Shown one piece after another: positions 6,239-42,236 of a stretch of 46,984 bases of DNA. A program made the position numbers and the translations under genes. The stretch spans positions 1 through 46,984 of the forward strand of contig JAYUTP010000058.1 of NCBI GenBank assembly GCA_043755075.1, written 5' to 3'. The notes below the pieces were generated by a model. It did not search any database. It was not told the origin of the DNA and was given only the letters and a program-made list of their open reading frames with translations. Every line of letters starts with the position of its first letter. Within the stretch, counting starts at the first letter, position 1. Source of the stretch: Candidatus Tenderia sp. GTDB taxonomy: Bacteria; Pseudomonadota; Gammaproteobacteria; Tenderiales; Tenderiaceae.

Positions 6239-6633
6239 CATTAAAAATATATACCTAATGGTTGGAAAGTAGCTGTAAAGTTAAACCCTATTAAATCATT
6301 TAGTTAATCGACAGATCCCATTGTAAAAACACCGTCAAAACAGAGTATGACATAACCAGCTTTACGCATTAGCATATGCCTATCGGCCATTGACTGTAAA
6401 ATTTATCGACAGTTCGAACATGCTGACAGCAAAATTATTACAAGGCCAAGTTTGGCGTGGTCATCACCAAGACGCATGGCGTTAACACCAAATTGGTGAC
6501 CGGAGTAACGTATTGCCAACGGTTCGGCACCAAACTGTGCTCGTAAAATGATCCACTTAACCAGACCACTGCGCCGTCTCCATCAATTCGATTAAGCCGC
6601 GAGGGCACCAAAAACAGGTGCTTCTGAGCGAGA

Positions 6634-6666
6634 GGGAGAGACTGCCCCGCGAAGCGCTTTGGGCAA
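6634..6666 (+). repeat. Copy of the short dispersed repeat also found at 31801-31848 and 34566-34626
   Basis: CTGCCCCGCGAAGCGCTTTGGGCAA (6642-6666) matches 34582-34606 at 22/25 positions. AAGCGCTTTGGGCA is identical to 34605-34618. Confidence 0.6.
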
Positions 6667-7469: not shown

Positions 7470-8282
7470 TTACAGCCGAGGAACCTTGCACCCCGGGCGT
7501 TTGCCTGCTGCCTTGGCTTGTTGATAGAGCATCAGTGCCTGCGGCATCGCCTTATTTAACTCATTGATGCGTGTATCATGGGAGGGGTGAGTTGACATAA
7601 ATTGCGGTGGCTGCTGGCCACCACCCTTGCCCATGTTCTGCCACAGCTTTACACTTTCGCGGGGATCAAAACCGGCCTGAGCCATCAATGTTAGACCAAT
7701 CTGGTCAGACTCACTCTCCTGCAGACGGCCGAAAGGCAGCAGCACCCCAACCTGACTGCCCAAACCAAGGGCGGACATTACCATCTGGCGGTTAGCGCTG
7801 TTGCTGGCTGCCATCCAATTATCCAAAATTGAAAGTGTCTGCCCCACGGCAAAGCTCTGTGAGACGCGTTCGTTGCCGTGGCGCGCCAGCACGTGCCCCA
7901 CCTCATGCCCCATCACCGCCGCCAGCTGATCAGCTGTTTCAGCCGTCCGCAGCATTCCCTTATAGACACCAATCTTACCGCCGGGCAAAGCAAAAGCGTT
8001 TACCTCTGGCGCATCAAAGACCACCACCTCCCAATCGGCGCTGATTTCCTGCACCATGGGTAAACGAGTGATGGCGTCTGCCACGCACTGTACATAACTG
8101 TTGATAATGGCATCTTTAACCGGAGGGGTCTCATCCCTCATTTGACTAAATGATTGCACCCCCATCACCACCATCTGTGATTCGGGCATGAAAATAAACT
8201 GTTTGCGCCCGGTGGGTGAAACCGCACACGCCGCCAGCACTGCAATAAGGGTTACCAGAATCACTTTTTTATACATGGTCAA
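7470..8282 (-). CDS. M48-family zinc metalloprotease lipoprotein (YcaL/LoiP-like)
   Basis: 270 aa with lipobox LAAC, the HEVGH zinc motif and a downstream E...D region. The start may be the second Met. Confidence 0.85.
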   Translation of the reverse strand: MTMYKKVILVTLIAVLAACAVSPTGRKQFIFMPESQMVVMGVQSFSQMRDETPPVKDAIINSYVQCVADAITRLPMVQEISADWEVVVFDAPEVNAFALPGGKIGVYKGMLRTAETADQLAAVMGHEVGHVLARHGNERVSQSFAVGQTLSILDNWMAASNSANRQMVMSALGLGSQVGVLLPFGRLQESESDQIGLTLMAQAGFDPRESVKLWQNMGKGGGQQPPQFMSTHPSHDTRINELNKAMPQALMLYQQAKAAGKRPGCKVPRL

Positions 8283-8429
8283 ACATCCATCATGGTTATT
8301 CAGATGGTGCCAACTATACCTTTACACACCCGTATATGCATCCACGTACCACCAGAGTAGACATAACCGCACCCTAGGCCGTAAGGTAAGCAATCTAAAT
8401 AAAATCACCCATCACAAGGGGGAATCATA

Positions 8430-8888
8430 GTGAAACTGAGAGCACTCTGTCTGGCACTGACCATACCCTTTGCAGCTGGCATCCAGACCGCCCATGCTGA
8501 AACATCCCTCGCCATCCAGCAGATGGCGGAGATCATGCTAAAGATGAATAAAACCCCCGACAATAAACAACGTGAGGTCTTGAAAAGTCTTGCCAACAAT
8601 GCCGCCTCTGCCAATGAACAGCGCTTGGCCAAGGGGTTGCTCAGCTTTAACAGCACCCTCAACGATGATGGAAAGCAGGAGGTGTGGGCAGTGATGCGGC
8701 AGATCAGCGCTGCCGATAGCGAGCGCGAGCTGGCAAAAATAATCAACCGCTTTGAAGATGTCGCCACTCAATCAGATCAGGCCCGATTGAATGCGTTGCT
8801 CCCAGCAAATGCCAAGGCCGAGAAGAAAGCCGATAAAAAAGCTGAGAAAAAAACCGACAAGGCCAGCAAAAAAGACGATAAAAAATAA
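8430..8888 (+). CDS. Secreted hypothetical protein with a Lys-rich C-terminal tail
   Basis: GTG start 6 nt after AAGGGGGA. Signal peptide MKLRALCLALTIPFAAGIQTAHA, tail KAEKKADKKAEKKTDKASKKDDKK. A terminator follows. Confidence 0.6.
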   Translation: MKLRALCLALTIPFAAGIQTAHAETSLAIQQMAEIMLKMNKTPDNKQREVLKSLANNAASANEQRLAKGLLSFNSTLNDDGKQEVWAVMRQISAADSERELAKIINRFEDVATQSDQARLNALLPANAKAEKKADKKAEKKTDKASKKDDKK

Positions 8889-8908
8889 TCAACACTCCTT
8901 TTCGCCAG

Positions 8909-8935
8909 GGCCCTCCTACGAGGGCCTTTTATTTT
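8909..8935 (+). terminator. Rho-independent terminator
   Basis: Stem GGCCCTC / GAGGGCC with loop CTAC, followed by TTTTATTTT. Confidence 0.75.
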
Positions 8936-8985
8936 ATAGTAAATTAGTGCTGCACCCGGCTATAACGCAGCAAGCGAGGCATGCT

Positions 8986-9528
8986 ATGAAAATATTCAGA
9001 TTCAGTTACCAACTCGGAATTTCACTTGCCGCCGCCATGCTTGTAGGCTGCGTTACTCAGATGCCCACCCCCATTACAGGCAATCTGCGCATCGCAGAAA
9101 TCCAGGCTGACCCGACACAATTCAAAGGTTCAGAAATCCGTTGGGGTGGCGTGATCACTGGCGTTGAAAATAAGTCATCAAACACTTGGGTTGAAGTAGT
9201 CAGCTTAGCGTTAAACAGTAACGGCAAACCATTACCAGAAAGCGACAGCGGCGGTCGTTTTATCGCCAATTTTTCCGGTTTTTCCGATCCAGTGGTCTAT
9301 AGCAACGACCGTCTGTTAACCATCACTGGTACCGTTACCAATGTCATCAAACGCACCATTGGTGAATACAACTATTCCTTCCCCGTTGTAACGGTCTCTA
9401 CGTCACACCTCTGGCCGATCGAGACAGCAGAATCGCCAGTGTCCAATACCCCACCACCTTGGTGGTACTACGATCCTTGGCCGCTCTATCCACGGCCTTA
9501 TTCATTCTACCCACACCACCATCGGTAA
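8986..9528 (+). CDS. slp: Slp-family outer membrane lipoprotein
   Basis: Internal ATG 8986 of ORF 8791..9528. Lipobox LVGC. RWGGVI, GRFIANFSGFSDPVVY and LTITGT align with E. coli Slp (RFGGKV, GRLLARQSGFLDPVNY, VTILGT). Confidence 0.8.
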   Translation: MKIFRFSYQLGISLAAAMLVGCVTQMPTPITGNLRIAEIQADPTQFKGSEIRWGGVITGVENKSSNTWVEVVSLALNSNGKPLPESDSGGRFIANFSGFSDPVVYSNDRLLTITGTVTNVIKRTIGEYNYSFPVVTVSTSHLWPIETAESPVSNTPPPWWYYDPWPLYPRPYSFYPHHHR

Positions 9529-9739
9529 ATTGTCATACTGACACAGCGGATCAGAAAGGACTCATGGGGGGTCGAAGCTTATCTCCATCACCGATAACGG
9601 CCTTGATATCACTCCGTATCAATTTCATGATTGAGATGCTTTAAACCAGCATCACATGCTATTCATTGTCCTCCTCCAAAATAGGATAGACACTGGTGAA
9701 CTCACCTCTACCGACCGCTAAAGTCAGCTCATCACACTC

Positions 9740-10069
9740 TTATTTCCGCTCATAATATTCTTCCAACCCATCGCCATGCTCATGAACGATCTTATACAGC
9801 GAGGCCTCATTAGCAAACATCAACCCTGTGGTTTTCGGGTCGGTGTGAATCACCATTGCAGTCAAACTACAACCGATACCACGGGGATAGCCAGGCTTGC
9901 AAAAATCAACCACCACCCCCTCACCCGAATGGAGAGATACACCAGACGTTTCGATCCCCACCCCACCTGAACTCATATCAATCGACCGAACGGCGGCCAC
10001 CACACGCCCGTCCTTAATCAATCTGACCAAAAAATCAAAAGGCTCACGCCGGTACAGTCTGTGTTCCAT
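9740..10069 (-). CDS. Single-domain PilZ protein (c-di-GMP receptor-like)
   Basis: 109 aa with RREPF (RxxxR-like) near the N-terminus and IDMSSGG (D/NxSxxG). Confidence 0.75.
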   Translation of the reverse strand: MEHRLYRREPFDFLVRLIKDGRVVAAVRSIDMSSGGVGIETSGVSLHSGEGVVVDFCKPGYPRGIGCSLTAMVIHTDPKTTGLMFANEASLYKIVHEHGDGLEEYYERK

Positions 10070-12788: not shown

Positions 12789-14000
12789 ATGACACTCTTT
12801 GCCCATCCATTTTTCTTGCCCCGTATTAACCAATTGCGGTTCGTGGCAGGTACGGCTGCTTTGCTGTTACTGCTTGGCGGTTGCAGCAAGAGCGATCAGG
12901 CTACAGCTCCAGCGGGTACGGACAAGGGGGGAGCGATGCCGCCGATGCCGGTGACCGTGATTGAGGTACAGAGTGAGCGTGTTCCCATCCTCATTCAGGC
13001 AGTGGGTCAGACGGCAGGCTCAAAAAATGTTGAAGTGCACGCCCGTGTCTCCGGTATTTTGCTGCAACAGCATTACACCGAGGGCGACCGGGTCAAGGCT
13101 GGGGCGACGCTCTTCACTATTGATCGCGCCCCGTTTGAGATTGCCCTAGCGCAGGCTCAGGCGGCACTGGCGCAGGACAAGGCCAATCTGGAACGAGCAC
13201 AGCGCGAGGCGGCGCGACTCAAGCCGCTGGTGGATGAGAAGGCGATCAGCAGCCGCGAACTTGACGATGCCAACACGACGCTGCAATCGGCGCTGGCGTC
13301 ACAGCAGGTGAATGAAGCGCGACTGCGTGACGCCGAGCTGAATATCTCTTACACCAATGTCACGGCACCGATCTCCGGCGTGACTGAGCGTGCGCAGTTC
13401 TCTCAGGGCACCCTAGTTGCCGCCGGCACCCCATCCAGCTTGCTAACGACCATTCACATCATTGATCCAATGTGGGTGCGTTTCTCCTTCTCCGAGAGCG
13501 AGGCCATGCAGCTACGCAAGGCCAAAGGCAGTCGTGAAATAACGCTGGTACTGGCCGATGGCAGCCGCTATGAGGCCAAAGGCAATATCAATTTTTCAGC
13601 CTCGACGGTGGACAGTAGAACCGGTTTGGTGGAGATGCGTGCCGAGTTCCCTAATCCCGATCAGTTGTTGCTGCCCGGGCAGTTTGTCCGCGTTCAAGTA
13701 TCCATGGGGGAGCGCGAGGCTTATCTAATCCCACAAGCGGCGCTGGCACAAACCGACCAAGGCAATCTGCTTTTTACCGTTGCACCTGATAACACCGTAG
13801 CACCGCGCCCGGTAGAGACCGATGGCTGGTCCGGGCATAACTGGGTGGTGACCAAAGGGCTGGCACCGGGCGACAAGGTGATCATTGATAACTTGATGAA
13901 GCTACGCCCTGGTGCAGCAGTAATGCCGCACGCCCCGGGTGAGATGCCTGCCGAGCCGATGGGTGGTGATAACAAAGCTGCCGCTGGTGCCAAGCACTAA
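12789..14000 (+). CDS. RND efflux periplasmic adaptor (AcrA/MexA family) lipoprotein
   Basis: 403 aa with lipobox LGGC, a coiled-coil hairpin region and the ISYTNVTAPISG lipoyl-like motif. Confidence 0.93.
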   Translation: MTLFAHPFFLPRINQLRFVAGTAALLLLLGGCSKSDQATAPAGTDKGGAMPPMPVTVIEVQSERVPILIQAVGQTAGSKNVEVHARVSGILLQQHYTEGDRVKAGATLFTIDRAPFEIALAQAQAALAQDKANLERAQREAARLKPLVDEKAISSRELDDANTTLQSALASQQVNEARLRDAELNISYTNVTAPISGVTERAQFSQGTLVAAGTPSSLLTTIHIIDPMWVRFSFSESEAMQLRKAKGSREITLVLADGSRYEAKGNINFSASTVDSRTGLVEMRAEFPNPDQLLLPGQFVRVQVSMGEREAYLIPQAALAQTDQGNLLFTVAPDNTVAPRPVETDGWSGHNWVVTKGLAPGDKVIIDNLMKLRPGAAVMPHAPGEMPAEPMGGDNKAAAGAKH

Positions 14001-14044: not shown

Positions 14045-17000
14045 ATGATGTCAAAATTTTTTATAGAACGCCCCATCTTCGCCACCGTGCTGGCCATCAT
14101 CCTGGTGTTGGCGGGATTAGTTTCGGCCAATATTCTGCCGATTGCTCAGTATCCCGAAATCGCACCGCCGACGGTAACGATTACCGCCGTCTATCCCGGT
14201 GCTTCGGCAGAGACACTGGCCAAGACGGTGGCAGCCCCCATCGAACAGCAGCTCTCGGGTGTCGAGGGGATGCTCTACTTCAACTCGACGGCCGCCTCCA
14301 ATGGCACACTCTCAATCACCGCGACCTTTGAAGTCGGCACCGATGTAGATAAGGCCACCTTCAATGTCAATAACCGCGTGCAACTGGCAACACCACGCCT
14401 ACCTGAAGAGGTGCGGCGCAACGGCATAACCGTGGAAAAACGGTCGCAGAATATTCTCTTGGTAGTGGCGCTCAATTCACCCAAGAGCACCTATGACATG
14501 CTCTATCTGTCCAATTATGCCAGCCTCAACATCGTCGATGAGCTTAAACACATCCCCGGCACAGCGGATGTGATGATCTTTGGCGCACGGGATTATTCGA
14601 TGCGCATCTGGCTTAAACCCGATCGGATGGCCCAGCTCGGCCTCACCACCGGCGACATCACCAACGCCATCAACTCGCAAAACGCCCAATACGCCGCTGG
14701 CAAAATAGGCGCTGATCCGGCACCCAAAGGGCAACAACTGGTTTACACCGTCACTACGCGCGGCCGCATGCTGCAACCGGAGGAGTTTGGCAATATCATC
14801 CTCCGCTCCAACGGCCCCAAAGGAGTATTGCGTCTCAAGGATGTGGCGCGCATCGAACTCGGTGCCCAGAGCTATGACCAAGCCAACAGCGTTAACGGCC
14901 AACCAGCGATTGCGGTAGCAGTGTTCCTCCAGTCTGGTGCCAATGCTCTTGATGTCGCCGATGCCGTCAGGGAGACGATGGCAACGTTGAAACAGGATCA
15001 GTTCCCCGAGGATGTCGACTATCTGATCCCCTATGACACCACACGCTTCGTCGCCGCCTCGATCCGCGAGGTAACGCACACGCTGGCCGAGGCCGCTGTG
15101 ATCGTACTGCTGGTGGTATTTGTCTTCCTGCAAAGCTGGCGCGCCACCTTGATTCCAATGATTGCCGTGCCGGTGTCGTTGATCGGCACCTTTGCTGGGT
15201 TGTGGCTGTTTGGGTTTTCCATCAACACTCTCACCCTCTTCGCCATGGTGCTGGCGGTCGGCATCGTGGTCGATGACGCCATTGTGGTACTGGAAAACGT
15301 CGAACGACTAATTCGTGAGCAGAAACTCAAACCCTTCGATGCGGCGGTCGAGGCGATGCGCGAGGTGCAGAATGCCGTCATTGGTATCGTGCTAGCGCTG
15401 GTGGCGGTCTTCATCCCCGTCGCCTTCTTGGGCGGCATCGCTGGCCAGCTCTACCGTCAGTTTGCGGTAACGGTGGCGATTGCCGTGGTGCTCTCCGGCA
15501 TTGTGGCACTGACGCTGACGCCAGCCCTCTGCGCGCTACTGCTCAAGCCACATTCAGAGGAGGGACATGAACCCAATAAATTTTTCAAACTCTTCAATCG
15601 CAGCTTTCAGTGGATCACGCAACACTTCCTCGGTGCCGTGACGCTGGCGTTAAAATGGCGGATTGCCGCACTGGCGCTCTTCGCGTTGCTGCTGGTTGGC
15701 GTCACCTTTCTCTTTCTGCGCATCCCCGGTGGTTTTGTACCGCCTGAAGACCAGGGCTACATCATCACTGCCGTGCAACTACCCGATGGCGCCACCCTCG
15801 AACGCACCACTAATACCACCACCCAGCTACGCAACATGATGCTTGGCAATGAAGCGATCGAAAATATTTTCATCGTCAACGGTTTTGACCTCATCAGCGG
15901 CAGCAATAAAACCAACGCCGCCACCATCTTCATGCCACTGAAGCCTTGGGAGGATCGCCAACAGACGGCCCAGCAATTGACCCAGGAGGTAAGTGGTAAG
16001 GGCTTCATGCTGACAGATGGCATCGCCTTCGCGTTTAATCCGCCAGCGATCCGTGGCCTCGGCGCCACTGGCGGTTTCGAAATCTATGTGCGTGGCCGCA
16101 GCGATCCCGATCCGCAACGGCTGGCGCAGGTAACCAACGACTTTATCGCCGCGCTTGGCAATCACCCGGTACTGGAGGGGTTGCGCACTTTCTACCGGCC
16201 CACCGTGCCGCAGCTGCAGGTAGATGTTGATCGTGAAAAAGCGCTGGCCTTAGGTGTGCCGGTGAACGATCTCTTTACCGCACTACAGGCGCAGATGGGG
16301 TCACTCTACGTCAACGACTTCAACAAGTCAGGCCGCACCTATCGCGTCACCATTCAGGCTGACGCCCAGTACCGTTCTAGTCCGGAAGACCTCGGTAACA
16401 TTTATGTACGCTCGACAACGACCAACACCATGATCCCGCTCAAGGCACTAATCAAGGTGACGAAGGTCATTGGTCCAGAGCAACTGGAACGTTATAACGG
16501 CTATATCGCCGCCAAGGTCTTTGGCAGCGCCAAGGCTGGGTTCAGCTCCGGCGATGCGATTGCCGCGGTTGAACAGGTGGCCAAGGAGAACTTGCCGAAA
16601 GGCTATGACATCGAATGGACCGGCCAAGCATTCCAAGAGAAACGTACCGGCAGTGCCTCGGTCTTTGCCTTCGGCTTTGCCCTGATCATGGTCTACCTGA
16701 TCCTGGCGGCGCTCTATGAACGTTGGGGTGTGCCGGTGGCGGTTCTGTTAGCGGTGCCATTTGCGGTGGGCGGAGCATTGGGCTTTGTCTATCTGCGCGG
16801 TCTCGACAATGACATCTACTTCCAGATCGGACTGATCGTACTGATCGGTCTGGCGGCAAAAAACGCCATCCTAATCGCGGAGTTCGCTATGCAAGGCATG
16901 GAAGAGGGGATGAACTCCATCGATGCGGCGCTGGAGGCGGCACGGCTGCGCTTCCGCCCCATCGTCATGACCTCCCTCGCCTTCGTCTTTGGCGTGTTGC

Positions 17001-24167: not shown

Positions 24168-25564
24168 CAGTTGTGCTGCTGTGGTTTGAACCACGCCAAC
24201 TGCTCGTGCAGTTTTACGACTTCACCAATGATCAGCAGTGTTGGTGCATGAATCTCGTTGTCAGCCACAATCTGGTTGAGTGTGGTGACCGTGCCGGTAT
24301 AAACCCGCTGCTGTTGCGTCGTCCCCTGCTGTACCAATGCGGCGGGCATATCGGCGCTCATGCCATGGGCGATCAGCTGTTGGCAGATGATATCGAGCCC
24401 CGCCAATCCCATATAAACCACCACCGTCTGGCGCGGCTGCACCAGCGTCTGCCACTCTAGGTCAACCGTTCCGTCCTTGAGCTGGCCAGTAACAAAGATG
24501 ACCGATTGGGCGTAGTCGCGATGGGTAAGCGGAATGCCGGCGTAGCTGGCGCACCCGGCCGCTGCCGTCACGCCCGGCACCACCTGAAAAGGGATGCCTT
24601 CCGCCGCCAGACCGGCAATCTCTTCACCGCCCCGGCCAAAGATAAACGGATCACCACCTTTGAGGCGCAATACCCGCTTGCCTTGTTTAGCCAGATCAAT
24701 AAGCTGCTGGTTGATCTCCTCCTGACGCACAGCGTGAAAGGCGCGTTTTTTACCCACATAAATCTGTTCCGCCTCGCGCCGCACCAGATCAAGAATTTGC
24801 GGCGAGACCAAGCGGTCGTAGAGCACCACATCGGCCTGCTGCATCAACCGCAACGCCCGAAAGGTGAGCAGATCGGGATCACCAGGACCGGCCCCCACCA
24901 GATAGACCTCACCCTTGGCAAGACCCTCGACATCGGCATGATCGATGGCATGTTGCAGCGCCGCCTCCGCCTCTTGCCACTTGTTGGCATAGGCTAACTC
25001 GGCAACACTGCCTTGCAACTGCTCTTCCCAAAAACGACGGCGCTGGCCGAAACTTTTAAAATGGTTTTTCACCGGGCCACGAAAACGCCCGGCCAACTCC
25101 GCTAAACGGCCATAGGCGGCCGGGATCAACGTCTCCAAACGGGCGCGTAACAACCGCCCCAGCACTGGCGATGCTCCGCCGGTGGAGACGGCCACAATGA
25201 CGGGCGAGCGGTCGATGATCGACGGCAGAATAAAGGTGCAGAGTTCCGGATGATCTACCACATTCACTGGAAGCCCTAACTGTTTGGAATCATTTGAAAT
25301 AGTGGCGTTAAGCACGCTGTCGTTTGTAGCGGCTATTACCAGCGCACACCCCGCCAGCTGCTGCGGGTCATACGTTGTTTTAAGCTGGCTGATCACCCCT
25401 TCATCAAGCTGTTGTTGCAATAGGCTGCAGAGTTGCGGTGCCACCACTACGACACTGGCCTGAGCGCGTAACAGCAGGCTCACCTTGCGTGCCGCAATCT
25501 CACCGCCGCCAACAACAAGCACTGGGCGTTTTTTAATATCTATGAAGATCGGTAAGTAATCCAT
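24167..25564 (-). CDS. cysG: Siroheme synthase (uroporphyrinogen-III methyltransferase / precorrin-2 dehydrogenase / ferrochelatase)
   Basis: 465 aa. The N-terminus has the [11 protein letters not shown] Rossmann fold. The C-terminus has the [12 protein letters not shown] and [13 protein letters not shown]-methyltransferase motifs. Confidence 0.95.
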
Positions 25565-25639
25565 GAAGCGGTCCTGTCAAAAGGTGAGAGTTCACGCCCC
25601 TCTCCCTTCAGCGAAAGAGGGAGAGGTTAAATTTATCTC

Positions 25640-26917
<1,278 letters not shown>

Positions 26918-27008
26918 TTACCTTTTATTTATTCAATTAATTCAAGTTATTAAGATGACTATGTAATTCAATACATTGGATACAAAATATTATCAAACAG
27001 CAGCCCTA

Positions 27009-27383
27009 TTATATCTGTCTGCCGACGACCACCCCCAGCCAACAGCCGCCCACACAGAGCAACAGGCTAAATACCATATTACTGATGGCTTTGAGGTGCG
27101 CGCCCGCGTCTATCAGTGCCAATGTCTCTATAGAAAAGGTGGAGAAGGTGGTAAACCCGCCCAGCACCCCAATCAAAATGGCCGCTCGCCACTCCGGGGC
27201 CAGTGCCATCCGCTCAATCAGCACCACCGTCAACAACCCCATCAATAAGGAGCCGACAACATTGACCGCCAGCGTGCCATAAGGAAATCCACGCCCGGCG
27301 ATGGAGTAGACCCAGCTGGACATCATAAAACGCAACACTGAACCGATGGCACCACCTGCCGCCACCATCACTAACTGGTTCAT
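27009..27383 (-). CDS. crcB: Fluoride channel CrcB/FluC
   Basis: 124 aa with four TM helices and [10 protein letters not shown] / GGFTTFSTF motifs. The ATG overlaps the rarA stop. Confidence 0.92.
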
Positions 27384-28732
27384 GATGGATTGTTCTCGCC
27401 AACTCCCCGCGCCTGCCGATCCAACTCACGCAAGTGGTTCAACTTATCGACAATCTTATTCTCCAGCCCACGTGGGACTGGGTGATAGTAACGTCGCTCC
27501 CCCATCGCTTCGGGAAAATAGTTTTCACCTGCGGCGTAGGCACCGGGTTCATCATGGGCATACCGGTAGGCCTTGCCATACCCCAACTCTTTCATCAATT
27601 TAGTCGGGGCGTTACGTAGATGCACGGGGACTTCGTGGGAGCCATGCTGTTTGACCTCCGCCATGGCCGCGTTAAAAGCAGCATAAGCGGCATTACTTTT
27701 GGGGGCGCAGGCTAGGTAGAGCACCGCCTGGGCAATGGCCAACTCCCCTTCCGGACTGCCAAGGCGCTCCTGTACATCCCAGGCATTCAGCGCAACATCA
27801 AGTGCACGGGGATCGGCATTGCCAATCTCTTCACTGGCCATCCGCACCACCCGTCGAGCTATATATAGTGGGTCACAGCCACCATCCACCATGCGTACAT
27901 ACCAATAGAGCGCCGCATCAGGACTGGAACCACGCACTGATTTATGCAGCGCCGAAATCTGATCGTAAAATGCCTCGCCACCCTTGTCGAAACGGCGCGG
28001 CGCACCACCACTGAGAATCTCATTGATCAACGCTTCGCCAATCTCTTCGCCCCCCTCCCCCGGCTGCGCCAGATCGGCGGCAATCTCAAGGAAGTTAAGG
28101 GCACGGCGGGCGTCACCATCCGCCACTTCGGCCAGACGATCCCGCAACACCTCCGCCATCACCAACGGTTTGCCAATGCCACGATCATGGTCGCTTAACG
28201 CACAGTCGATAATCTGGCGAATCTCTTCAGTACTCAGGCTACGCAATACGTAGACCCGCGCCCGCGACAGCAGCGCGTTATTCAGTTCAAACGAGGGATT
28301 TTCAGTGGTGGCGCCGATGAAGGTAAACGTACCATCCTCAACGTAGGGTAAAAAAGCGTCCTGCTGCGCCTTGTTGAAGCGATGCACTTCATCCACAAAC
28401 AGCACGGTGGCGCGTCGCTCAACATCGCGGGCATATTGCGCCTGCTCCACGGCGGCACGAATCTCCTTCACCCCGCCAAGTACAGCGGAGATGCTAAGAA
28501 ACTGGGCTTGAGCACGATTGGCCAGCAGACGGGCCAGTGTGGTTTTGCCGGTTCCCGGCGGTCCCCAGAGGATCATCGAATGAATGCGGTCAGCCTCAAT
28601 CGCCTGTCGCAGCGGCTTGCCAACCCCCAACAGATGGCTCTGGCCCACATACTCGGCAAGTATTTGCGGCCGCATACGATCCGCCAGTGGCTTCCAGGTG
28701 GATGCACAACCAGCGTCAAACAGATCAGCCAC
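27380..28732 (-). CDS. rarA: Replication-associated recombination protein A (MgsA/RarA AAA+ ATPase)
   Basis: 450 aa with Walker [20 protein letters not shown] and the conserved C-terminal MgsA domain. It uses a GTG start. Confidence 0.95.
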
Positions 28733-29367
28733 TATTTTTTAACCGTCTCATCGAGCACATCCACTCCTTTGGGGATGGAAAAAGCAAAGGTATCGACGGC
28801 AACAGGAGTGTTGGTCTGGACGTTATCAAACTGAACATCGGTCTGCTGACCAAAGCCATCGCGGATCTCAAGACGATAGAGCTGTTTCTTTTTTAACCCG
28901 AGCAGGATCTGTTCAAAACCACTCTCTTTGGCCTTGGGTGTCAGCTCAAACCATTGCACGCCATCGTTGCGCTGAATCGAGCGAATCTTGAACTCATCCT
29001 CCAATGTGGAATGGGTGCTCAGCAGTGAGGCCGGTGAGCCGGCCAGGGCTTGATCTTGCGGCTTGACGGTTACCTGTTCCAGATCAACATCGTAGAGCCA
29101 CACTTTGTTGCCATCGGCAACAATCTCCTGCTCGTAGGGGGATTGGTAGTTCCAGCGAAACTTGCCGGGGCGCTGGATCACCAGACGGCCGCGCATCTGC
29201 TGCTGCACGTTGCGATTCTGGTCGAGGATCTCTTGAGTGAAATCAGCCTTCAGCGTTTTGTAACTGAAGAGCGACTTCAATAACGCCTCGCCTTCAGCGT
29301 GCGCCAGAGGAGCAACCGCACACGCAGCAACCGCGACAAAACGGCACAATATTTTTTTCAGCGACAT
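28732..29367 (-). CDS. lolA: Outer-membrane lipoprotein carrier protein LolA
   Basis: 211 aa with a signal peptide and F.Q...D......[11 protein letters not shown]. The ftsK-lolA-rarA synteny is conserved. Confidence 0.93.
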
Positions 29368-29369
29368 GT

Positions 29370-31685
29370 TTAATCCTTGGGTGGCGGTGGTGCCAATACT
29401 TCACGATTACCGTTGGACTGCATCGGGCCAACCACGCCGGCGCGTTCCATATCTTCTACCATGCGGGCAGCCCGATTGTAGCCGATTTTGAGACGGCGCT
29501 GGATGCCTGAAACCGAGGCGCGACGTGATTCGGTGACGATTCGAACCGCTTGATCGTAAAGTTCGTCAGCTTCATCGGCACCGCTACCAAAGCTTCCCAT
29601 ACCATCGCCGCCTTCGGTCGAGGGCCCTTCAAGGATCTCGTCAATATATTCGGGTGTACCGAGTTGCTTCAGCGCTTCAACCACCCTGTGCACCTCATTA
29701 TCGGCGACAAAGGCGCCGTGGACGCGGGTCGGCACGCTGGTACCCGATGGCAGATAGAGCATGTCGCCGTGACCCAGCAGCGACTCGGCGCCGCTCTGAT
29801 CGAGGATGGTACGGGAGTCGATCTTCGATGAGACCTGGAAGGAGATGCGCGTCGGGATATTAGCCTTGATCAGACCGGTCAAGACATCGACCGATGGGCG
29901 CTGGGTGGCGAGCAACAGATGAATACCGGAGGCGCGTGCCTTTTGCGCCAAACGGGCGATCAACTCTTCAACCTTTTTACCTGCCACCATCATCATGTCA
30001 GCCAGCTCATCGACAATCACCACGATATGCGGCAACGGCTCTAACGGCGGACGGATCTCATCGGGCGACATCATCTCCTTAAAAGGATCGCGGAGCGGCT
30101 CACCGGCATCGAGCGCCTCTTTCACCTTTTTGTTATAACCGCTGAGATTACGCACGCCGACATGGGCCATCAATCGGTAACGGCGATCCATCTCCACCAC
30201 ACACCAGCGCAGAGCGTTGGCAGCATCTTTCATGTCAGTCACGACTGGCGCGAGCAGATGGGGAATCCCTTCATAGATCGAGAGTTCCAGCATCTTTGGA
30301 TCGATCATAATCATGCGCACCTCATCGGGTGTCGCCTTGTAGAGCATGCTCAGGATCATGGCGTTGATGGCGACCGACTTACCAGAACCGGTAGTCCCCG
30401 CAACTAGCAGATGGGGCATTTTGGCGAGATCGGCCACCAATGGATGACCCGCGATATCCTTACCTAACGCCAACGTCAAGGGTGAGTGTGCTTCGTCATA
30501 CTGTTTGGATTGCAGGATCTCACTCAAGCGCACGGTTTCGCGTTCTTCGTTAGGGATCTCTAGCCCGACAGTGGTCTTGCCCGGAATCACCTCTACGACA
30601 CGGACACTGATGGCCGAGAGGGCACGGGCCAAATCCTTGGCCAGGTTGGTGATTTGATTTACCTTGACTCCAGTGCCCAGCTGAATCTCGAAGCGAGTAA
30701 TCACCGGCCCGGGATGAACCGCCACCACTTGAACCTCAATACCAAAGTCGCGGAGCTTCATTTCCAGCAGACGGGAAATTGCCTCCAGCGCCTCATGAGA
30801 GAACCCCTTGCCGCTGTGAATGGCGGCATCCAGAATCGACAATGGTGGCAGGCCGTGACGACGATCTTCATCGGTGACAAAGAGTGGCTGCTGGCGCTCC
30901 TGTTCGACACGCTCGCTGATATCCATTTTCTTAACCAATGGTTCGATACGCGGTGGCTGACGCTTCTCACTCCTTTTGGTTTCGACTTTTAGTGCAACCG
31001 TGCGCTGCTGACGCATCTTGCGTGCTTCAAAATATTCACGCAATGCACCAAACCAGCTGCGAACCAGTGAGATGAGTTCCAAACTCAAGCGCCCCGTCAC
31101 ATCCATCAACCACAACCAGGAGAGCCCCGTAAAGAGCGTGACACCCGCCAAGAAAAGCGCCAACATGAAGAGCGTAGCGCCAACAAAACTGAAAGGCTCT
31201 TCAAGTGAATGGGAGACCACGTCACCCAGAATTCCCCCCGGCGTCAACGGCAGACCAACCGCCGTTTGGGAGTGCAGTGCCGCCAATCCACAGCCTGCCA
31301 TCACTGTCAGAAAAAAACCGCCGATACGCAGAATGAGTTCCGTTGAGGTGACCGGCTCATCGGACTTGCGACCTTGGAAAATCAGCCAGCCACTGTAGGC
31401 CACCATGATGGGTATCAGGTAGGCAAAGTAACCAAAAAGGTGGAGGCCAACATCGGCAAACCATGCCCCCACTACGCCGCCACTGTTTTCAATCTGGCTA
31501 ACATGGCCGCTGTGGGACCAGCCTGGATCAGTGGCCTCGTAACTGCCCAGCGAAATCATCAGATAGAGCGCCACTGCACCAAAAAGAAATAGCGCCCCCT
31601 CGCGCAATCCACGCATACCCCGCACCAATCGTGCCGGACGGCCAGAATTGCCCGCCTTATCTTTTTTTCGTGTTGCCTGTGCCAA
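29370..31685 (-). CDS. ftsK: DNA translocase FtsK
   Basis: 771 aa with N-terminal TM helices, a linker, an alpha/beta motor (GTTGSGKS, Walker B VVIVDE) and a gamma winged helix ([21 protein letters not shown]). The annotated start is TTG, so the start is uncertain. Confidence 0.95.
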
Positions 31686-31800
31686 ACGCGCCTCGCACCA
31701 ATTACGCTAAAATAAAAAACTTACATATCAAAGCATTATACCTGCATCGTCAGGCAATATCTGCACTCTGGGGAGGACACTGATTTTCCCCTGTCAACAC

Positions 31801-31848
31801 GGCAAGAATGCCCAAAACGCTTCGCGAGGCAGGCTCTGCCGCTCCCAC
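31801..31848. repeat. Left inverted repeat bounding the ftsK/trxB cassette
   Basis: The reverse complement of 31801-31848 equals 34566-34626 except for one C/T mismatch and a 13-nt internal duplication in the right copy. Confidence 0.9.
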
Positions 31849-32029
31849 TCCAGCGGTAACAATGTTAGAGCTCGGCTCACATTTTATCATTAAAAAAATA
31901 CCACTATGGCAAATCCACACAAATCCACTGCTATATACAGCCAGTCTGCCGCCCTTTTTCCCGAACCAACTCCACGGGATTGCGGAACATGCCGCCCATA
32001 CCGTACAGACGCGGTTTCATAGAGGCACC

Positions 32030-32326
32030 ATGAAAGCCTACATTGCCGGCATCGGCATGATCACCTCGATCGGCGCCAACAGCGCCATGATCGCCGCTTC
32101 GGTCAGGACCGGCATCAGCGGCTACAGCGTCTCCGACTACTACAATCACGTCGGCGAACCGATCACCCTCGCGCTGCTGCCCGAGGTGGTCTTCGGATCA
32201 GTGGAGCTCGACACTCGTGAATGGGACTACTGTAGCGAGCAGTACGAACGCGTCATCAAAATGGCCATCATCGCCCTGCGCGAAGCGGGGCGGCTGGAAA
32301 AAATAGCAAAAACAACGGGTGTATAA
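32030..32326 (+). pseudogene. Beta-ketoacyl-ACP synthase N-terminal stub (98 codons)
   Basis: MKAYIAGIGMITSIGANSAMIAASVRTGISGYS...VIKMAIIALREAG aligns with the first ~100 aa of FabF/FabB-type KAS (VVVTGLGMLSPVG...GQSGIS). It ends abruptly, and neither the active-site Cys region nor the C-terminal half is present anywhere nearby. Confidence 0.6.
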
Positions 32327-32338
32327 GGAGACTGAGGT

Positions 32339-33734
32339 ATGCAGCAGGGCGAAAAGACATTTGTACCCGCCGATGAACCCAAAAAGGCGATACCGAATGA
32401 GGAGAGTGTCCGCATCCGTTTTTGCGTCTTTTCCGACGGCACCTTAAACAACCGCACCAACATCAACCAGCGCTTGGCGGCGGCGCCGATGGAAGATCTG
32501 ACCGACGAGGAGCTAAAGTCCTCCCTGAAGGTCAAGGGCGAAATGTCAGCCGACGACATCCAGCAGGCCATCGAGGTCTACAACAAACACAAGCCCGACA
32601 CCCCGGACGAAGAGAGCAGCTACGAAGGCTACTACACCAACGTCGAGAAGATGGAGCGTTACGTCGATCGCGCCACCCCGCCGCCGGACCACACCATGAT
32701 GCTGGGTCGAAGGCTCCGGCACCCTCAACAAGGCGGGTGACGAAACCGCCGGTTTCGCCTTTGCCAAGGGCAAGTCAGGCATGGAAGCGAAGGTCGAGAA
32801 GGCGCTGCAGGATGTCGTGAAAAAAATCAAAAAGGCGCATCCGGACAAAAGCATCGTGATTGAAAAACTGACGCTCGACGTCTTCGGTTTCAGCCGCGGC
32901 GCGGCCGGGGCGCGCAACTTCATTCACAAGGCCCTGTTTGGCGAAGGCGATTGCCTCTCCATTCTCTCCCGGCTGGTGGATGAACTGGGATATACGGTCG
33001 GCCAGGTCGAAGTCTGCTTCGTCGGACTCTACGACACCGTGTCGAGCTTCGGCTATCTGCTGCCGCTCAACTCCAACAATACCCGTGCCCTGCATCTGGA
33101 CGCCGTCGCCAATGCCAAGGCCGTCGTCCATCTGGCCGCCGCCGACGTGCACCGTAAATATTTCGCCCTCACCGACATCGGCAGCGCCGCTGGCAAGGGG
33201 CGGCAGTACTTCCTGCCAGGGATCCACTCCGACATCGGCGGCGGTTATCGCGACAACGGCACGGAAACGCAGACGATCTATCGCGGCTTTGAGTTTAACG
33301 CCCAAGCGGAGCGCGCCCGGCTCATCGACGCCGGCTGGTATACAGAAAAGGAGATCACCCTGAACAGCAGCGGCGATGAGCTGCTCTCGGTGGCGACGCT
33401 CACGGTAAAACGGCCGAACATCGGCAATGGCTACAGCCAGATCCCGCTGCACCTGATGGCGGGGTATGCGCGGGAGAGTAAAATAAACATCATTAGTGAA
33501 TTAGAGAGTGACGAACCCGTTCCCGCTAAACTCCGCCAGGTTCATACAAAACTGCAAGAATATATCAACGCCCAAGGCCCCTATAGCTCCAAGGCGGAGG
33601 ACTGGCACTGCAACGACCTGGGCTGGCTGCGCCAATTGCGTCACGACTATTTTCACTTCTCCGCCCGCCTCAAAATGGGCCACACCCCGTGTTTTAAACG
33701 CGGCCAACGCAGCCGGCAGACCCATGAAGGCTAA
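32339..33734 (+). pseudogene. DUF2235 / Tle1-type alpha/beta-hydrolase lipase, split by a 1-nt frameshift near 32700-32705
   Basis: ORF 32339..32740 carries IRFCVFSDGTLNN and YYTNVEKM. The rest, in the +1 frame, carries VEGSGT (from 32706), the nucleophile elbow FGFSRGAAGARNF, GLYDTVSSFG and PGIHSDIGGGY. There is a good RBS (AAGGAG) before 32339. Confidence 0.75.
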
Positions 33735-34495
33735 CCTCATGCGCTGGGCCGCCTGGCCTTTTATCCTCTTTTCACTCACCGCCTGTGGAGCGACACAACC
33801 CATGACTAAACTCAAATTCGACTGGCAAGCCACCGACAACGCGCCGCGTGATTACCCAATGGAGATTTTAGGCGGCAGCCTGATCTATCCCGAGAGCGGC
33901 TCGCTTTACGTGCCCGACAAAATAAGAATCGCCTACGGTTGGGGCAAGCCAGGGCGCTCCCACGTTGTTGGGCCGGACCTGAAGCCACTGCCCAACACCT
34001 TGGCGATCAGTTTTTTCTCCTATACCGAAAACCAGTTTTATGGCGGCCGCTTCGCGCTGCCTTATGACAGGATCGTGCAGCTCTTCAACGCCGGCTATGA
34101 TAGTCCCAGAAAAGGCCATATTACCTATGACCAGATCATTGTCGGCGTCGCCCCTGGCGGCGCGGTAGCGGTGTGACTGTCAGGCGTGAACAAAACCACC
34201 GAGGTCTTTTTTGGCCATGCCGAAAAAAAGGAGGGCAGTTGGAGTTCGATTAATAATAATCCGGAAATAACGCGGGAAGAGTATGTTCGATTGGGAGTTG
34301 AAGAAACTCTCACCCCCGAAGCCCTAGACTCCCTACACAAAAACGGCGTCCCCCTCGGCCTGTGGGACAGCTACCGCCCCCGTCACCACGGAAGAAGGGA
34401 CTCGACTCAAGTTCAGCGTCTGGCTGCGCAACGAAAAAGAGGCGCTTCAACTCAAACAGACCAATATTGAGACCTATGGGGTAAAGGATCTATAA
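33724..34495 (+). pseudogene. Lipoprotein (DUF2931-like, candidate lipase immunity protein) with an in-frame TGA and a probable frameshift
   Basis: The ATG at 33724 overlaps the lipase end by 11 nt. Lipobox SLTAC. The frame reads ...VGVAPGGAVAV-TGA(34174-34176)-LSGVNKTTEVFFGHA... and stays open to 34470. A plausible C-terminus (VTTEEGTRLKFSVWLRNEKEALQLKQTNIETYGVKDL*) lies in the next frame after the C5 run at 34377-34381. Confidence 0.6.
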
Positions 34496-34565
34496 AGAGT
34501 GAGCAGCCTCAATTTTTTTGTGTTTGGCAGAGTGGCTGGCGCAGTTTGGGTTGCAAATGATTTCT

Positions 34566-34626
34566 GTGGGAGCGGCAGAGCCTGCCTCGCGAAGTGTTTT
34601 GGGCAAGCGCTTTGGGCATTCTTGCC
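34566..34626. repeat. Right inverted repeat bounding the ftsK/trxB cassette
   Basis: GTGGGAGCGGCAGAGCCTGCCTCGCGAAGTGTTTTGGGCA[AGCGCTTTGGGCA]TTCTTGCC. It contains the small hairpin GGCAG-AGC-CTGCC. Confidence 0.9.
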
Positions 34627-34793
34627 GCCATAAATCGGGCACCAGCGTATCGTGGCAAGACTGCCCCTTTACCCGTCCCCGAACATCACCTATGATGGTT
34701 CGAATTGATTATTGAGGATGGATGAAAAACACATCATGTTGTTGTTCATCTAGGCCAACAACACTGGATGTACTGTATCACACCCTATATTAA

Positions 34794-35771
<978 letters not shown>

Positions 35772-37654: not shown

Positions 37655-37848
37655 GCAAACAACTCTGCAAACTCATCGCGTCGGCCATTTACGCAAACAC
37701 CGAACACAGTTAGCGTCTGGGCGATCACTTCAACAGAGATATTGAACAACATGGATTAGATTGAAACTTGCCATGATGGCAGTAAACAGGGGTTATTAGA
37801 AAGCTAAATGGTCCGCAGAAAAAGCGAGGGAAATAATATTCGTTCGAC

Positions 37849-37925
37849 TGGTCGGAGCGGGGAGATTCGAACTCCCGACCCCCACAACCCCATTGTGGTG
37901 CGCTACCTGGCTGCGCTACGCTCCG
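37849..37925 (-). tRNA. tRNA-Pro (anticodon GGG)
   Basis: 77 nt folding as a cloverleaf. Acceptor CGGAGCG/CGCTCCG, D stem GCGC/GCGC, anticodon stem CCACA/TGTGG with loop AUGGGGU, T arm GGGAG-TTCGAAT-CTCCC, and an encoded CCA. Confidence 0.93.
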
Positions 37926-38025
37926 AAATTTTTTATGTCATTAAAGCAGATAAATAAGTGGGGAAACTTTATTCATTTAGGGCGAGCATGATACTGAATT
38001 GCATCGTATTACGCTAGCGGGAATG

Positions 38026-38382
38026 TTATTTTTTTAGTGTCGCCAAAAGCTCTTCTAGCTCATGACGCAGCTGCTGGATTAACTCATTACTCACCGTGAC
38101 ATCGTTTTTTGTCTCATTGCCAGATAGCTGCTGCCGAGCACCGCCAATGGTAAAACCTTGCTCATATAGCAAGCCACGAATCTGGCGAACCATAATAACG
38201 TCATGACGCTGATAATAACGCCTATTGCCCCGGCGTTTCAGCGGCTTAAGCTGTGGAAACTCCTGCTCCCAATAACGAAGCACATGGGGCTTGACGCCAC
38301 AGAGATCACTCACCTCACCGATAGTGAAGTAGCGTTTTGCAGGGATCTGAGGTAGCTCACTATTGTTCGCGGCTTCCAGCAT
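38026..38382 (-). CDS. MerR-family transcriptional regulator
   Basis: 118 aa with the [25 protein letters not shown]. It overlaps the ihfA 3' end by 23 nt. A MerR-family gene follows ihfA in Pseudomonas too (recalled). Confidence 0.85.
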
Positions 38383-38662
38383 ATACCTCCACCCTTGCCT
38401 TCAATTTCTGACCGGGGTGAAAGGTCACGACTCGACGCGCAGTAATGGGTATCTCTTCACCCGTCTTGGGATTTCGGCCTGGTCTTTCGTTTTTATCACG
38501 TAAATTGAAGTTGCCAAACCCTGACAGCTTTACTTGGCGGCCATTTTCAAGAGCGGTGCGAATCTCTTCGAAAAACATCTCGACGAGTTCCTTGGCTTCG
38601 CGTTTGTTTAAACCAAGTTCCTCAAATAGCTTTTCAGCCATCTCTGCTTTTGTTAACGCCAT
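38360..38662 (-). CDS. ihfA: Integration host factor subunit alpha
   Basis: 100 aa. [28 protein letters not shown]...[19 protein letters not shown]. Confidence 0.97.
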
Positions 38663-38665
38663 GTG

Positions 38666-42137: not shown

Positions 42138-42236
42138 GGATGCCTCTAAAAACTCACTATATCCGGTCGTACAGATGCCTATCTAGGCATTTATATCCTG
42201 ACCATTACCGGTTCGATTGAGTTTTTAGAGGCATCC
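42138..42236 (-). other. 99-nt element with 19-bp perfect terminal inverted repeats in the pheS leader
   Basis: GGATGCCTCTAAAAACTCA (42138-42156) is exactly complementary to TGAGTTTTTAGAGGCATCC (42218-42236). An inner palindrome ATGCCTA-TC-TAGGCAT lies at 42175-42190. Confidence 0.7.

Follow-up and report, generated by a model that had tools for sequence, protein, structure and literature searches.

What kind of element occupies the spacer between ftsK and trxB in Candidatus Tenderia sp.? In the 46,984-nt stretch of DNA analyzed here, which we call the window, an inverted pair of near-identical repeats encloses three co-oriented genes at this site. A first-pass annotation had read the segment as a non-autonomous, repeat-bounded, possibly invertible or mobilisable toxin/immunity cassette, recently inactivated and without a counterpart among known element classes. 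Our analysis leads to a partly different answer. The segment is probably a horizontally acquired, defunct orphan T6SS effector islet which lies between copies of a REP-like repeat, and not a dedicated transposon. All features are collected in Table 1.

Table 1. Features of the ftsK-trxB segment and of its repeat family, in window coordinates.
Feature	Position	Strand	Basis or content
Core-only singleton of the arm repeat family	6641..6665	+	ACTGCCCCGCGAAGCGCTTTGGGCA; unrelated intergenic spacer; nhmmer E=7.6e-11
Whole insert, ~2.89 kb	31776..34662	.	not found in the sister lineage, where the ftsK-trxB spacer is empty
Left repeat arm, 49 nt	31800..31848	-	head GTGGGAGCGGCA, core hairpin CCTGCCTCGCGAAGCGTTTTGGGCA, tail TTCTTGCCG; nhmmer E=4.5e-13
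PRK06147-type KAS-like T6SS accessory/adaptor remnant, 98 codons	32030..32326	+	homology to 360-aa partners
tle1-family (DUF2235) phospholipase effector pseudogene	32339..33734	+	PF09994
DUF2931 (Tli-type) immunity lipoprotein pseudogene	33724..34495	+	PF11153
Right repeat arm, 62 nt	34566..34627	+	left-arm composite plus one 13-nt unit; nhmmer E=2.8e-17
trxB-proximal native spacer part	34663..34811	+	outside the insert; conserved in all relatives (spacer alignment)

The insert in the ftsK-trxB spacer

The gap between ftsK and trxB measures 3,126 bp in the window; in relatives whose FtsK is 88% and 75% identical, it is 247-342 bp, and an empty spacer was found in the sister lineage L014 as well as in L017, L018, and L019. 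This spacer comparison bears out the earlier view that DNA had been inserted between the two genes. Another relative with 88% identical FtsK, L015, has this slot filled by an unrelated AlkZ-like gene, and the junctions of the alternative spacer contents agree to within ~20 nt. Homology to L014 stops at 31775 and restarts at 34663; homology to L015 stops at ~31759 and restarts at 34664. Measured against these two relatives, whose spacers have diverged, the insert overshoots the repeat arms by 24 and 35 nt. Judged from these alignments, the islet is a lineage-specific insertion. The GC3 of tle1 is 0.75-0.80, compared to a host range of 0.49-0.69. A promoter-like element, TTTACC-17-TATGAT at 34668-34696, lies outside the insert.

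No exact direct repeat of at least 4 nt, as a target-site duplication would leave, was found within ±6 nt of either end, while such a repeat is expected by chance in 44% of random position pairs. Genes for a transposase, an integrase, VgrG, PAAR, or Hcp are missing from the window, as first noted; an adaptor gene had been declared missing as well, and of this a remnant is present (see below). There is no recombinase gene nearby, the nearest tRNA or tmRNA that might serve as an integration target is 3.2 kb away, and a distant blastn search of a plasmid collection gave no match to the segment. Conserved flanks, alternative contents, and the lack of mobility genes are thus found together at this site, as in an integration hotspot or minimal mobile element.

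The enclosed genes and their intact relatives

Between the arms, the remnants of three co-oriented genes were confirmed, and the presumed toxin/immunity character of the set holds in the form of a Tle1/DUF2931 module. The tle1 gene scores 57.6 bits with PF09994 (gathering cut-off 27). Its only frameshift, a net +1 nt within 32696-32706, is present in all assemblies and leaves it without an intact reading frame. Its motifs GFSRG and HSDIGGGY are intact; the former, the GxSxG nucleophile motif, is also kept in L008. Once the frame is repaired, the protein can be aligned over its whole length to ~1,000 intact homologues (460-470 aa), all containing PF09994; the best of these are 64-65% identical.

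Immediately downstream, and overlapping the end of tle1 by 11 nt, the DUF2931 gene matches the full-length PF11153 profile with 95 bits, a score above the Pfam cut-off; a signal peptide with lipobox LTAC can be read from its sequence. It is not intact either. The codon at 34174-34176 has changed from TGG to TGA where relatives have W, and an out-of-frame deletion at ~34382-34386 has removed ~95 codons, such that the product is 73% identical to residues 1-196 of its L008 relative and then continues with residues 292-328 in another frame.

Of the first gene, only a remnant is left. It shares 54-60% identity with residues 4-90 of 360-aa partners in L008, L009, and L011, and its tail RLEKIAKTTGV* matches their C-termini. 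An in-frame internal deletion has taken ~residues 91-349 of ~360 (~72% of the gene, leaving ~28%), with microhomology GCGCG.AGCGG shared by the breakpoints; the native stop, the RBS, and the spacing to tle1 are retained. Full-length partners match NF004798/PRK06147 end to end (E=1e-51, 176 bits vs a cut-off of 342), the stub in the window with 19 bits only. A role as T6SS adaptor has been proposed for the PRK06147 family (PMC7714669); such accessory proteins constitute a proposed fourth adaptor class and have been named TvpD (PA0098, P. aeruginosa). The KAS stub of the first-pass annotation is not a fragment of a fatty-acid synthase but of a T6SS accessory (adaptor-type) gene. With regard to the extent of decay, it had counted one or two lesions per gene, and the actual damage is heavier, as the deletions in the first and third gene demonstrate.

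Wherever the gene upstream of Tle1 is visible in relatives (L008, L009, L010, and twice in L011), it is the KAS-like partner, in L011 itself preceded by DUF2169, DUF6484, and VgrG genes. In intact relatives, the trio forms part of clusters of the order Hcp-VgrG-DUF6484-DUF2169-PAAR-like-HEAT-[KAS-like]-Tle1-DUF2931. Linkage of tle1 to T6SS genes is therefore present in relatives, whereas no VgrG, PAAR, Hcp, or T6SS core gene was found linked to it in the window or in 65 kb of the source genome. The stretch from the left arm to the adaptor start was also searched for traces of the HEAT-repeat gene that lies upstream in the relatives, with no significant result. The source lineage appears to hold only the last three genes of the module.

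The earlier suspicion of inactivation is supported. All lesions recur unchanged in four independent short-read assemblies, one of which comes from a strain that differs by 19 SNPs in the flanking genes, and the segment has one and the same orientation in all five assemblies, which stem from different runs. Since two deletions, a frameshift, and a nonsense mutation have put all three genes out of action, the islet, as its reading frames show, is now non-functional and no longer does anything.

Its original function may be deduced by analogy. DUF2235 and DUF2931 proteins form an experimentally validated effector-immunity pair, and decayed or supernumerary immunity genes are common at Tle1/DUF2931 loci (PMC7245790, PMC13133936). 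By comparison with these validated systems, the PRK06147-type KAS-like accessory protein would have aided the loading of the Tle1 phospholipase onto a VgrG/PAAR spike, while the DUF2931 protein, as an outer-membrane lipoprotein, would have shielded the producer cell.

The arms are copies of a REP-like repeat family

The inverted repeats were found where they had been reported, and each end extends by one further base. In reverse complement, 31800-31848 aligns to 34566-34627 by a 29-nt identical block (GTGGGAGCGGCAGAGCCTGCCTCGCGAAG), one C/T mismatch at 34595, 10 identical nt, a 13-nt extra unit, and 9 identical nt (TTCTTGCCG). The extra unit (AGCGCTTTGGGCA, 34606-34618) occurs in the right arm only. 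It had been taken for an internal duplication; instead, it is a unit-number variant, present also in one repeat copy of the sister lineage. The arms lie 2,717 nt apart, and both heads point towards the islet, the left arm being read on the minus strand. With up to 3 mismatches tolerated, the 29-mer occurs twice in the 47-kb window, while two matches were seen in none of 100 shuffles.

The arms are members of a dispersed, lineage-specific family of extragenic repeats. Its architecture comprises a GTGG head, a conserved two-tier hairpin core (CCTGCCYCRCGWAGYGYTTTGGGCA), and a short GGCA/TGCC hairpin tail. Over 65 kb of the source genome there are four sites, and over 17 kb of L014 three, each of them intergenic. 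Besides the arms, the source genome has two sites in ~62 kb, both core-only (the singleton of Table 1 and position 4760 of L024). In L014, two of the three sites are REPIN-type doublets; the one at 6386-6482 has its inverted REPs within ~150 bp, unlike the window arms. The repeats agree with REPs in being short extragenic palindromic units with a 5' GT[A/G]G head at dispersed intergenic sites. Pairing in the core hairpin is preserved in 48/48 cells with one compensatory change from G-C to A-T, the statistics being weak with six copies. Folding of each single arm is no better than that of shuffled sequence (z -0.3 to -1.4), and Rfam (31400-35000, E<=1) yielded no family.

The likeness between the arms (48/49 plus one unit) is far above that of either arm to other family members. 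Both have derived features found in no other copy: a T at core position 7, the GGCA|GAG junction, and the tail given above. This suggests that the arms were generated together and are not independent arrivals.

A degenerate 26-nt arm pattern was scanned against 185,579 species genomes and against JGI metagenomes, both collections that do not include the source organism, and no second arm copy was identified. The one pattern match per collection is due to chance, since both fall within protein-coding regions of unrelated high-GC organisms. Because the pattern reaches across the head/core junction, a window-specific feature, this null result speaks to the spread of the composite arm, not to the abundance of the family; the scans show only that the composite arm is not widespread.

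Origin of the bracketing and comparison with known systems

How did the islet come to lie between two REP-like copies? Its site, the gap between the divergent ftsK and trxB promoters, is a frequent target of insertions and has accepted DNA that varies from one relative to the next. The islet itself, or a larger element that deletions have since shortened, would most likely have entered a REP doublet here or moved by recombination between REP copies. The arms are not the ends of a dedicated transposon, and the segment is not a new kind of mobile element.

Some properties of the arms do not sit easily with an islet caught between REP-like copies. These are their mutual likeness and shared derived features; the inverted-pair pattern as such, which is the expected look of the ends of a mobile unit; and the inward orientation of the heads, opposite to the product of splitting an L014-type REPIN. 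Furthermore, at the repeat density of the source genome, the probability of a chance inverted pair on both flanks is P ~0.002.

A mobile insertion cassette (MIC/MITE-like), in which the arms would be terminal inverted repeats and the 2.8-kb unit would have been transposed whole by a transposase encoded elsewhere, is unlikely in our judgement. Its case is built on the near-identical inverted ends of 49 and 62 nt with no transposase between them and on the lineage-specific insertion with an empty site in the sister lineage. In addition, the class exists already: contrary to the earlier statement that no element class would match, transposase-less cassettes bounded by inverted repeats have been described as MICs and TIMEs (PMC3913671, PMC4133298, PMC4337579). 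However, the inserted DNA extends past both arms, so that (with the reservation that the spacers have diverged) the ends are not the insertion boundaries. A target-site duplication was not found, even though a repeat of that size is frequent at random; the homology of the arms is to repeats that occur dispersed as singletons and doublets, and does not extend to a known IS or Tn end. Around the intact modules of L008, L009, and L012, inverted pairs are weak and chance-like, and bounding repeats are lacking. The failure to find a second arm copy in the scans points in the same direction but is weak, the source organism being outside the collections. Together with the uniform orientation in five assemblies, these results also leave the initial proposal of a new repeat-bounded, mobile or invertible class unsupported.

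That the arms act like RAYT-flanking or REPIN REPs, with a RAYT having moved the segment in trans, we consider very unlikely. In favour of this reading, the arms begin with the GTGG head that REPs usually carry, REPIN doublets of the family exist in the sister lineage, and family sites are not common to source and sister lineages, which implies recent mobility. The missing target-site duplication is consistent with Y1 transposases, which leave none. A spacer of 2.7 kb, on the other hand, would not form the presumed intermediate hairpin, the single arms fold no better than shuffles, the heads point inward, unlike those of the L014 doublets, and no RAYT was seen in 65 kb of the source genome. 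REPINs have ~70-110 bp between their conserved ends (PMC3116915). The specific version in which the arms serve as functional termini of a REP doublet with cargo, a REPIN-like unit with its spacer enlarged to 2.7 kb, strikes us as highly improbable. If true, a REP-associated tyrosine transposase could move whole gene cassettes without target-site duplications, here a T6SS adaptor-effector-immunity set, and domesticated Y1 transposases would have a new way of mobilising genes.

There is likewise only a slim chance that two independent members of an abundant repeat family flank the islet by coincidence. The family is dispersed, and at the density of the sister lineage (3 sites in ~1.2 kb of intergenic DNA) a flanking inverted pair has P ~0.16; yet the sparse, core-only sites of the source genome reduce this value to ~0.002, and the arms share derived features found in no other copy. 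An invertible switch or an assembly or sequencing artefact is hardly conceivable: inverted repeats with at least 29 nt of perfect identity could support RecA-mediated inversion, but the concordance of lesions and orientation in five assemblies from different runs refutes an artefact, no recombinase gene is nearby, and with all three enclosed genes dead there is nothing to switch.

If the segment is indeed a defunct effector islet between REP-like copies, it adds another case to the decaying orphan T6SS effector-immunity islets, here from a gammaproteobacterium that has not been cultured, and its value is mainly that of a clean worked example, in which an empty site is known, the slot holds an alternative insert in a relative, and all lesions are mapped. 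The PRK06147-type accessory gene would travel as a unit with its cargo Tle1 and DUF2931 genes, widening the contexts of the proposed adaptor class. Members of a REP-like family bracket foreign DNA in inverted orientation; should this recur genome-wide, REP elements would be linked to the capture or movement of gene cassettes.

The module has close counterparts in Tle1AH/Tli1Tli2AH of Aeromonas hydrophila and Tle1Vc of Vibrio cholerae, with the same two Pfam families in the same order, an immunity gene immediately downstream that encodes a lipoprotein, and the GxSxG lipase motif. There, however, a DUF4123 adaptor gene is located upstream and vgrG is linked, whereas here a PRK06147-type gene takes the upstream place and no spike gene is found in the window; moreover, every gene here is a pseudogene, and the best intact homologue is only 64-65% identical. 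With TvpD, the KAS-like partners share a size of ~350-380 aa and a gene position beside T6SS spike and effector genes, and the VgrG-DUF6484-DUF2169-...-PRK06147 cluster of L011 resembles the P. aeruginosa-type Tvp arrangement. They differ in forming a divergent branch below the NCBIfam cut-off and in preceding a cargo Tle1 lipase, not a PAAR-fused effector, and the window copy retains just ~28% of the gene.

The REP/REPIN elements of Pseudomonas and E. coli are likewise short, dispersed, lineage-specific extragenic repeats in which a GTGG head is combined with a hairpin; site occupancy differs among close relatives, and inverted doublets occur, here in the sister lineage. In contrast, the window arms are 2.7 kb apart and not ~70-110 bp, with heads inward, a 32-45-nt core module interrupts the REP hairpin, copy number looks low in the source genome, and the partner RAYT known from REP/RAYT systems was not identified in its 65 kb. 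MIC231, the qnrD-MICs, the effector MICs of Xanthomonas, and the Tn3-derived TIMEs also have passenger genes between terminal inverted repeats and no transposase, but their IS- or Tn-derived ends, target-site duplications, and multiple copies were not found here.

Minimal mobile elements (MMEs), or chromosomal integration hotspots, of Neisseria were reportedly described by Saunders and Snyder in 2002. They are exchanged via transformation and homologous recombination in the flanks and have no bounding inverted repeats, unlike the segment studied here. MMEs are also cited in PMC1538595. What they have in common with the ftsK-trxB site is a single slot between conserved genes which holds varying cassettes or is empty, without mobility genes.

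Gene content and decay of the islet

The three disrupted genes between ftsK and trxB appear to represent the adaptor, effector and immunity genes of a single T6SS module of known type, because the stub resembles PRK06147 proteins and the following pair corresponds to DUF2235 and DUF2931. Three-frame reading and repair of obvious breaks yielded a 465-aa protein matching PF09994 (T6SS Tle1-like catalytic domain; 57.6 bits, cut-off 27) and a 257-aa lipoprotein covering the whole DUF2931/PF11153 profile (95 bits). About 1,000 intact homologues of the repaired lipase (460-470 aa) align end to end; the best reach 64-65% identity, the named ones being from Beggiatoa and Thiotrichaceae. Experiments in Aeromonas hydrophila have validated DUF2235 lipases with one to three DUF2931 lipoprotein genes downstream as effector-immunity sets (PMC7245790), and PMC13133936 cites the same arrangement as experimentally validated in Vibrio cholerae.

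The 98-codon "KAS stub" shares 54-60% identity with residues 4-90 of the 353-382-aa proteins that accompany intact Tle1 genes. The NCBIfam model NF004798/PRK06147 aligns with these partners over its full length (E ~1e-51), although their score of 176 bits falls short of the curated 342; their similarity to true KAS enzymes is weak. A fourth class of T6SS adaptor has been proposed for PRK06147 homologues on the basis that they adjoin spike and effector genes, and usually DUF2169 (PMC7714669). A 2026 preprint names the member PA0098 of P. aeruginosa TvpD and places it in the context VgrG-DUF6484-DUF2169-PRK06147-PAAR. Whereas the PRK06147-type genes of the literature occur with PAAR-fused effectors, those of three intact loci (L008, L009, L011) precede a cargo Tle1. 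Since SMNG stands opposite the catalytic SAHG in a HMMER alignment to a solved KAS, the KAS-like accessory protein probably has no synthase activity. In L011, the trio of 382-aa protein, Tle1 and DUF2931 is present a second time. The L008 trio has no VgrG gene upstream of it.

Aligning the proteins of intact relatives onto the window revealed four lesions. An in-frame internal deletion removed ~72% of the adaptor gene, fusing residues up to ~90 ("...ALREA") to the native last 11 ("RLEKI...") and retaining the native stop, RBS and spacing to tle1; its breakpoints have the microhomology GCGCG.AGCGG in common. In tle1, a single frameshift lies within 32696-32706, with the GFSRG and HSDIGGGY motifs undamaged. 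The immunity gene carries a TGG to TGA change at 34174-34176, where relatives have "VAVWL", and at ~34384 has lost ~95 codons together with its frame, the missing part corresponding to L008 residues 197-291. The same gene fragments recur, at 99.98-100% locus identity, in four short-read contigs (L001-L004) that were assembled independently from different runs. One of them, L002, is a distinct strain that differs by 19 substitutions in the neighbouring cysG-serS-rarA region and has an identical islet. Thus, the lesions are not sequencing errors, and the inactivation claimed in the first-pass annotation is borne out. The islet has one and the same orientation in all assemblies compared.

Features of the islet, its repeat family and related loci
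Feature	Position	Strand	Remarks
ftsK	window 29370-31685	minus	intact
Left arm	window 31800-31848
Right arm	window 34566-34627
trxB	window 34812-35771	plus	intact
Core-only singleton	window 6641-6665		same genome
Core-only singleton	L024 4760-4784		same genome; phoB-mipA spacer, about 3.7 or 8 kb past the window's right end
Family sites, sister lineage	L014 (JGI 3300037424) 6386-6482, 12968-12992, 16891-16952		intergenic
PRK06147-type KAS-like genes	L008 559-1641; L009 2241-3323; L011 8869-10017, 12655-13716		directly upstream of cargo Tle1
Gene order, L011	GCA_022712945.1		Hcp, VgrG, DUF6484, DUF2169, Tox-PAAR-like, HEAT-repeat, 382-aa unannotated protein, Tle1, DUF2931
Gene order, L008			360-aa protein, Tle1, DUF2931, PAAR-like gene; directly 3' of a housekeeping-type gene
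Gene order, L009 and L010			HEAT-repeat protein, 360-aa protein, Tle1

Insertion into the ftsK-trxB spacer

The source is an uncultured gammaproteobacterium, and its FtsK is 88% identical to that of two metagenomic relatives, 74-77% to that of a wider clade and ~68% to that of Sulfurivermis and Thiohalobacter. The two genes lie 3,126 bp apart in the window, 247 bp apart in L014 (an 88% relative) and 273-342 bp apart in L017, L018 and L019 (~75% relatives). Without the segment bounded by the repeats, the window spacer measures 298 bp and can be aligned with those of the relatives; homology to L014 breaks off at 31775 and restarts at 34663. These empty spacers confirm that the cassette is an insertion, as first annotated. 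The other 88% relative, L015 (Logan SRR22387915), carries an unrelated 1.7-kb insert in this spacer (8106-10000), which codes for a 397-aa AlkZ-like protein (PF06224), has no bounding repeats and has junctions at window positions ~31759 and 34664, within ~20 nt of those of the islet. Because a different insert is found there at matching junctions, the stretch separating the promoter block next to ftsK from that next to trxB is a recurrent insertion-tolerant site. The GC3 of tle1 (0.75-0.80) is higher than in any of 17 host genes (0.49-0.69), which is consistent with a foreign origin. Neither the window nor a further 18 kb from this genome contains a gene for a T6SS, transposase, integrase or RAYT, and no tRNA adjoins the islet.

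Further variation was observed around the islet. At 25193-28870, the substitutions relative to L002 are bunched in cysG-serS-crcB-rarA-lolA, with ftsK, islet and trxB identical, which could reflect a recombination tract or uneven diversity. Between serS and crcB, a 94-bp gap (26915-27008) is left where a DUF190 gene is missing; this gene lies 3' of crcB in L014, L015, L016, L017, L019 and L020. The gene order 3' of ate (37655-38665, with tRNA-Pro at 37849-37925) varies among all relatives examined, with MerR, IHF and pheT in the window, infA, clpA and clpS in the 75% clade, and Fic or FG-GAP genes in the 88% relatives. This makes a second junction of variable content, adjoining a tRNA. Directly 5' of pheS (minus strand), a 30-nt inverted repeat (42138-42236; 87% complementary, 39-nt loop) is possibly a pheST leader or attenuator.

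The arms and their repeat family

The reverse complement of the left arm matches the right arm over a 29-nt identical block, a C/T mismatch at 34595 and 10 identical nt; the right arm continues with an extra 13-nt unit (34606-34618) and then the matching end TTCTTGCCG. Even with three mismatches allowed, the whole window (46,984 nt) contains exactly two occurrences of the 29-mer, and two matches arose in none of 100 dinucleotide-preserving shuffles. The reported inverted repeats are therefore real.

A sensitive search across all fetched loci revealed relatives of the arms. The two core-only singletons of the source genome differ in their inner stems, CGC-GAA-GCG and CAC-GTA-GTG, which form a compensatory pair. 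In L014, two of the three sites are REPIN-style doublets and the third is a singleton; together they occupy 3 of roughly nine sizeable spacers, a density that seems far higher than that in the window genome. The doublet at 6386-6482 reads GTGGGAGCGGCATTCTTGCCGCGA - 45 nt - TCGCGGCAAAAATGCCGCTCCCAC, its interior being homologous to the window arm, including both 13-nt units. As these copies and doublets match its parts, each arm is a composite, with GTGGGAGCGGCA as its REP head, CCTGCCYCRCGWAGYGYTTTGGGCA as its core and a short hairpin, GGCA-TTCT-TGCC, as its tail. The two-tier hairpin of the core is paired in 48 of 48 cells (six copies), with a compensatory G-C to A-T change at one pair, where the sole arm-to-arm mismatch sits as a G-T wobble; 92 of 500 shuffles of the six sequences match this pairing level, and a conserved hairpin is suggestive, not conclusive. 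Since no family site is common to the window lineage and L014, the family has been mobile after the two split. Scans of 185,579 species genomes and of JGI metagenomes were run with a pattern extending across the boundary of head and core, which tests the composite arm, not family abundance; chance matches inside coding sequence were the only hits, and the composite arm is not widespread.

Origin of the bracket and known element classes

The arms could be regarded as the ends of a mobile unit, but several observations speak against this. There is no target-site duplication: exact matches of as little as 4 nt are absent within ±6 nt of the ends, and 44% of position pairs drawn at random have such a match. 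The insert reaches 24 and 35 nt past the arms, a soft point with spacers ~20% diverged; intact relatives of the module lack bounding repeats, the islet has no plasmid or Rfam match, and single arms fold no better than shuffled sequence. In favor of a unit, the arms resemble each other far more than any other family member and have derived characters in common. At the source-genome density (two other sites in ~62 kb, ~9.6 kb of it intergenic), an inverted pair on both flanks has a chance probability of ~0.002; at the L014 density it is ~0.16. Given this likeness, the derived characters and the low probability, the arms were produced together. Their heads face inward, and splitting an L014-type doublet would leave them outward. 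As the joined arms (...GCTCCCAC|GTGGGAGC...) give a perfect palindrome centre, one simple possibility is that the islet inserted into a heads-in doublet, REPs being known insertion hot spots (PMC1525189). Alternatively, REP-mediated ectopic recombination may have been involved.

The cassette reading is only partly supported: it stands as an inactivated toxin/immunity insertion, but not as a new element class. The view that no described class matches does not hold, because transposase-less cassettes bounded by inverted repeats are already known as MICs and TIMEs; the locus fails those tests for this class that were feasible. What is still odd, the paired, near-identical, inward-facing arms, is not enough on its own to define a new class. 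The integration-tolerant spacer holds an orphan T6SS adaptor/Tle1/Tli islet in a decayed state, with one copy of a lineage-specific REP-like repeat on each side, and every component of the locus belongs to a known kind.
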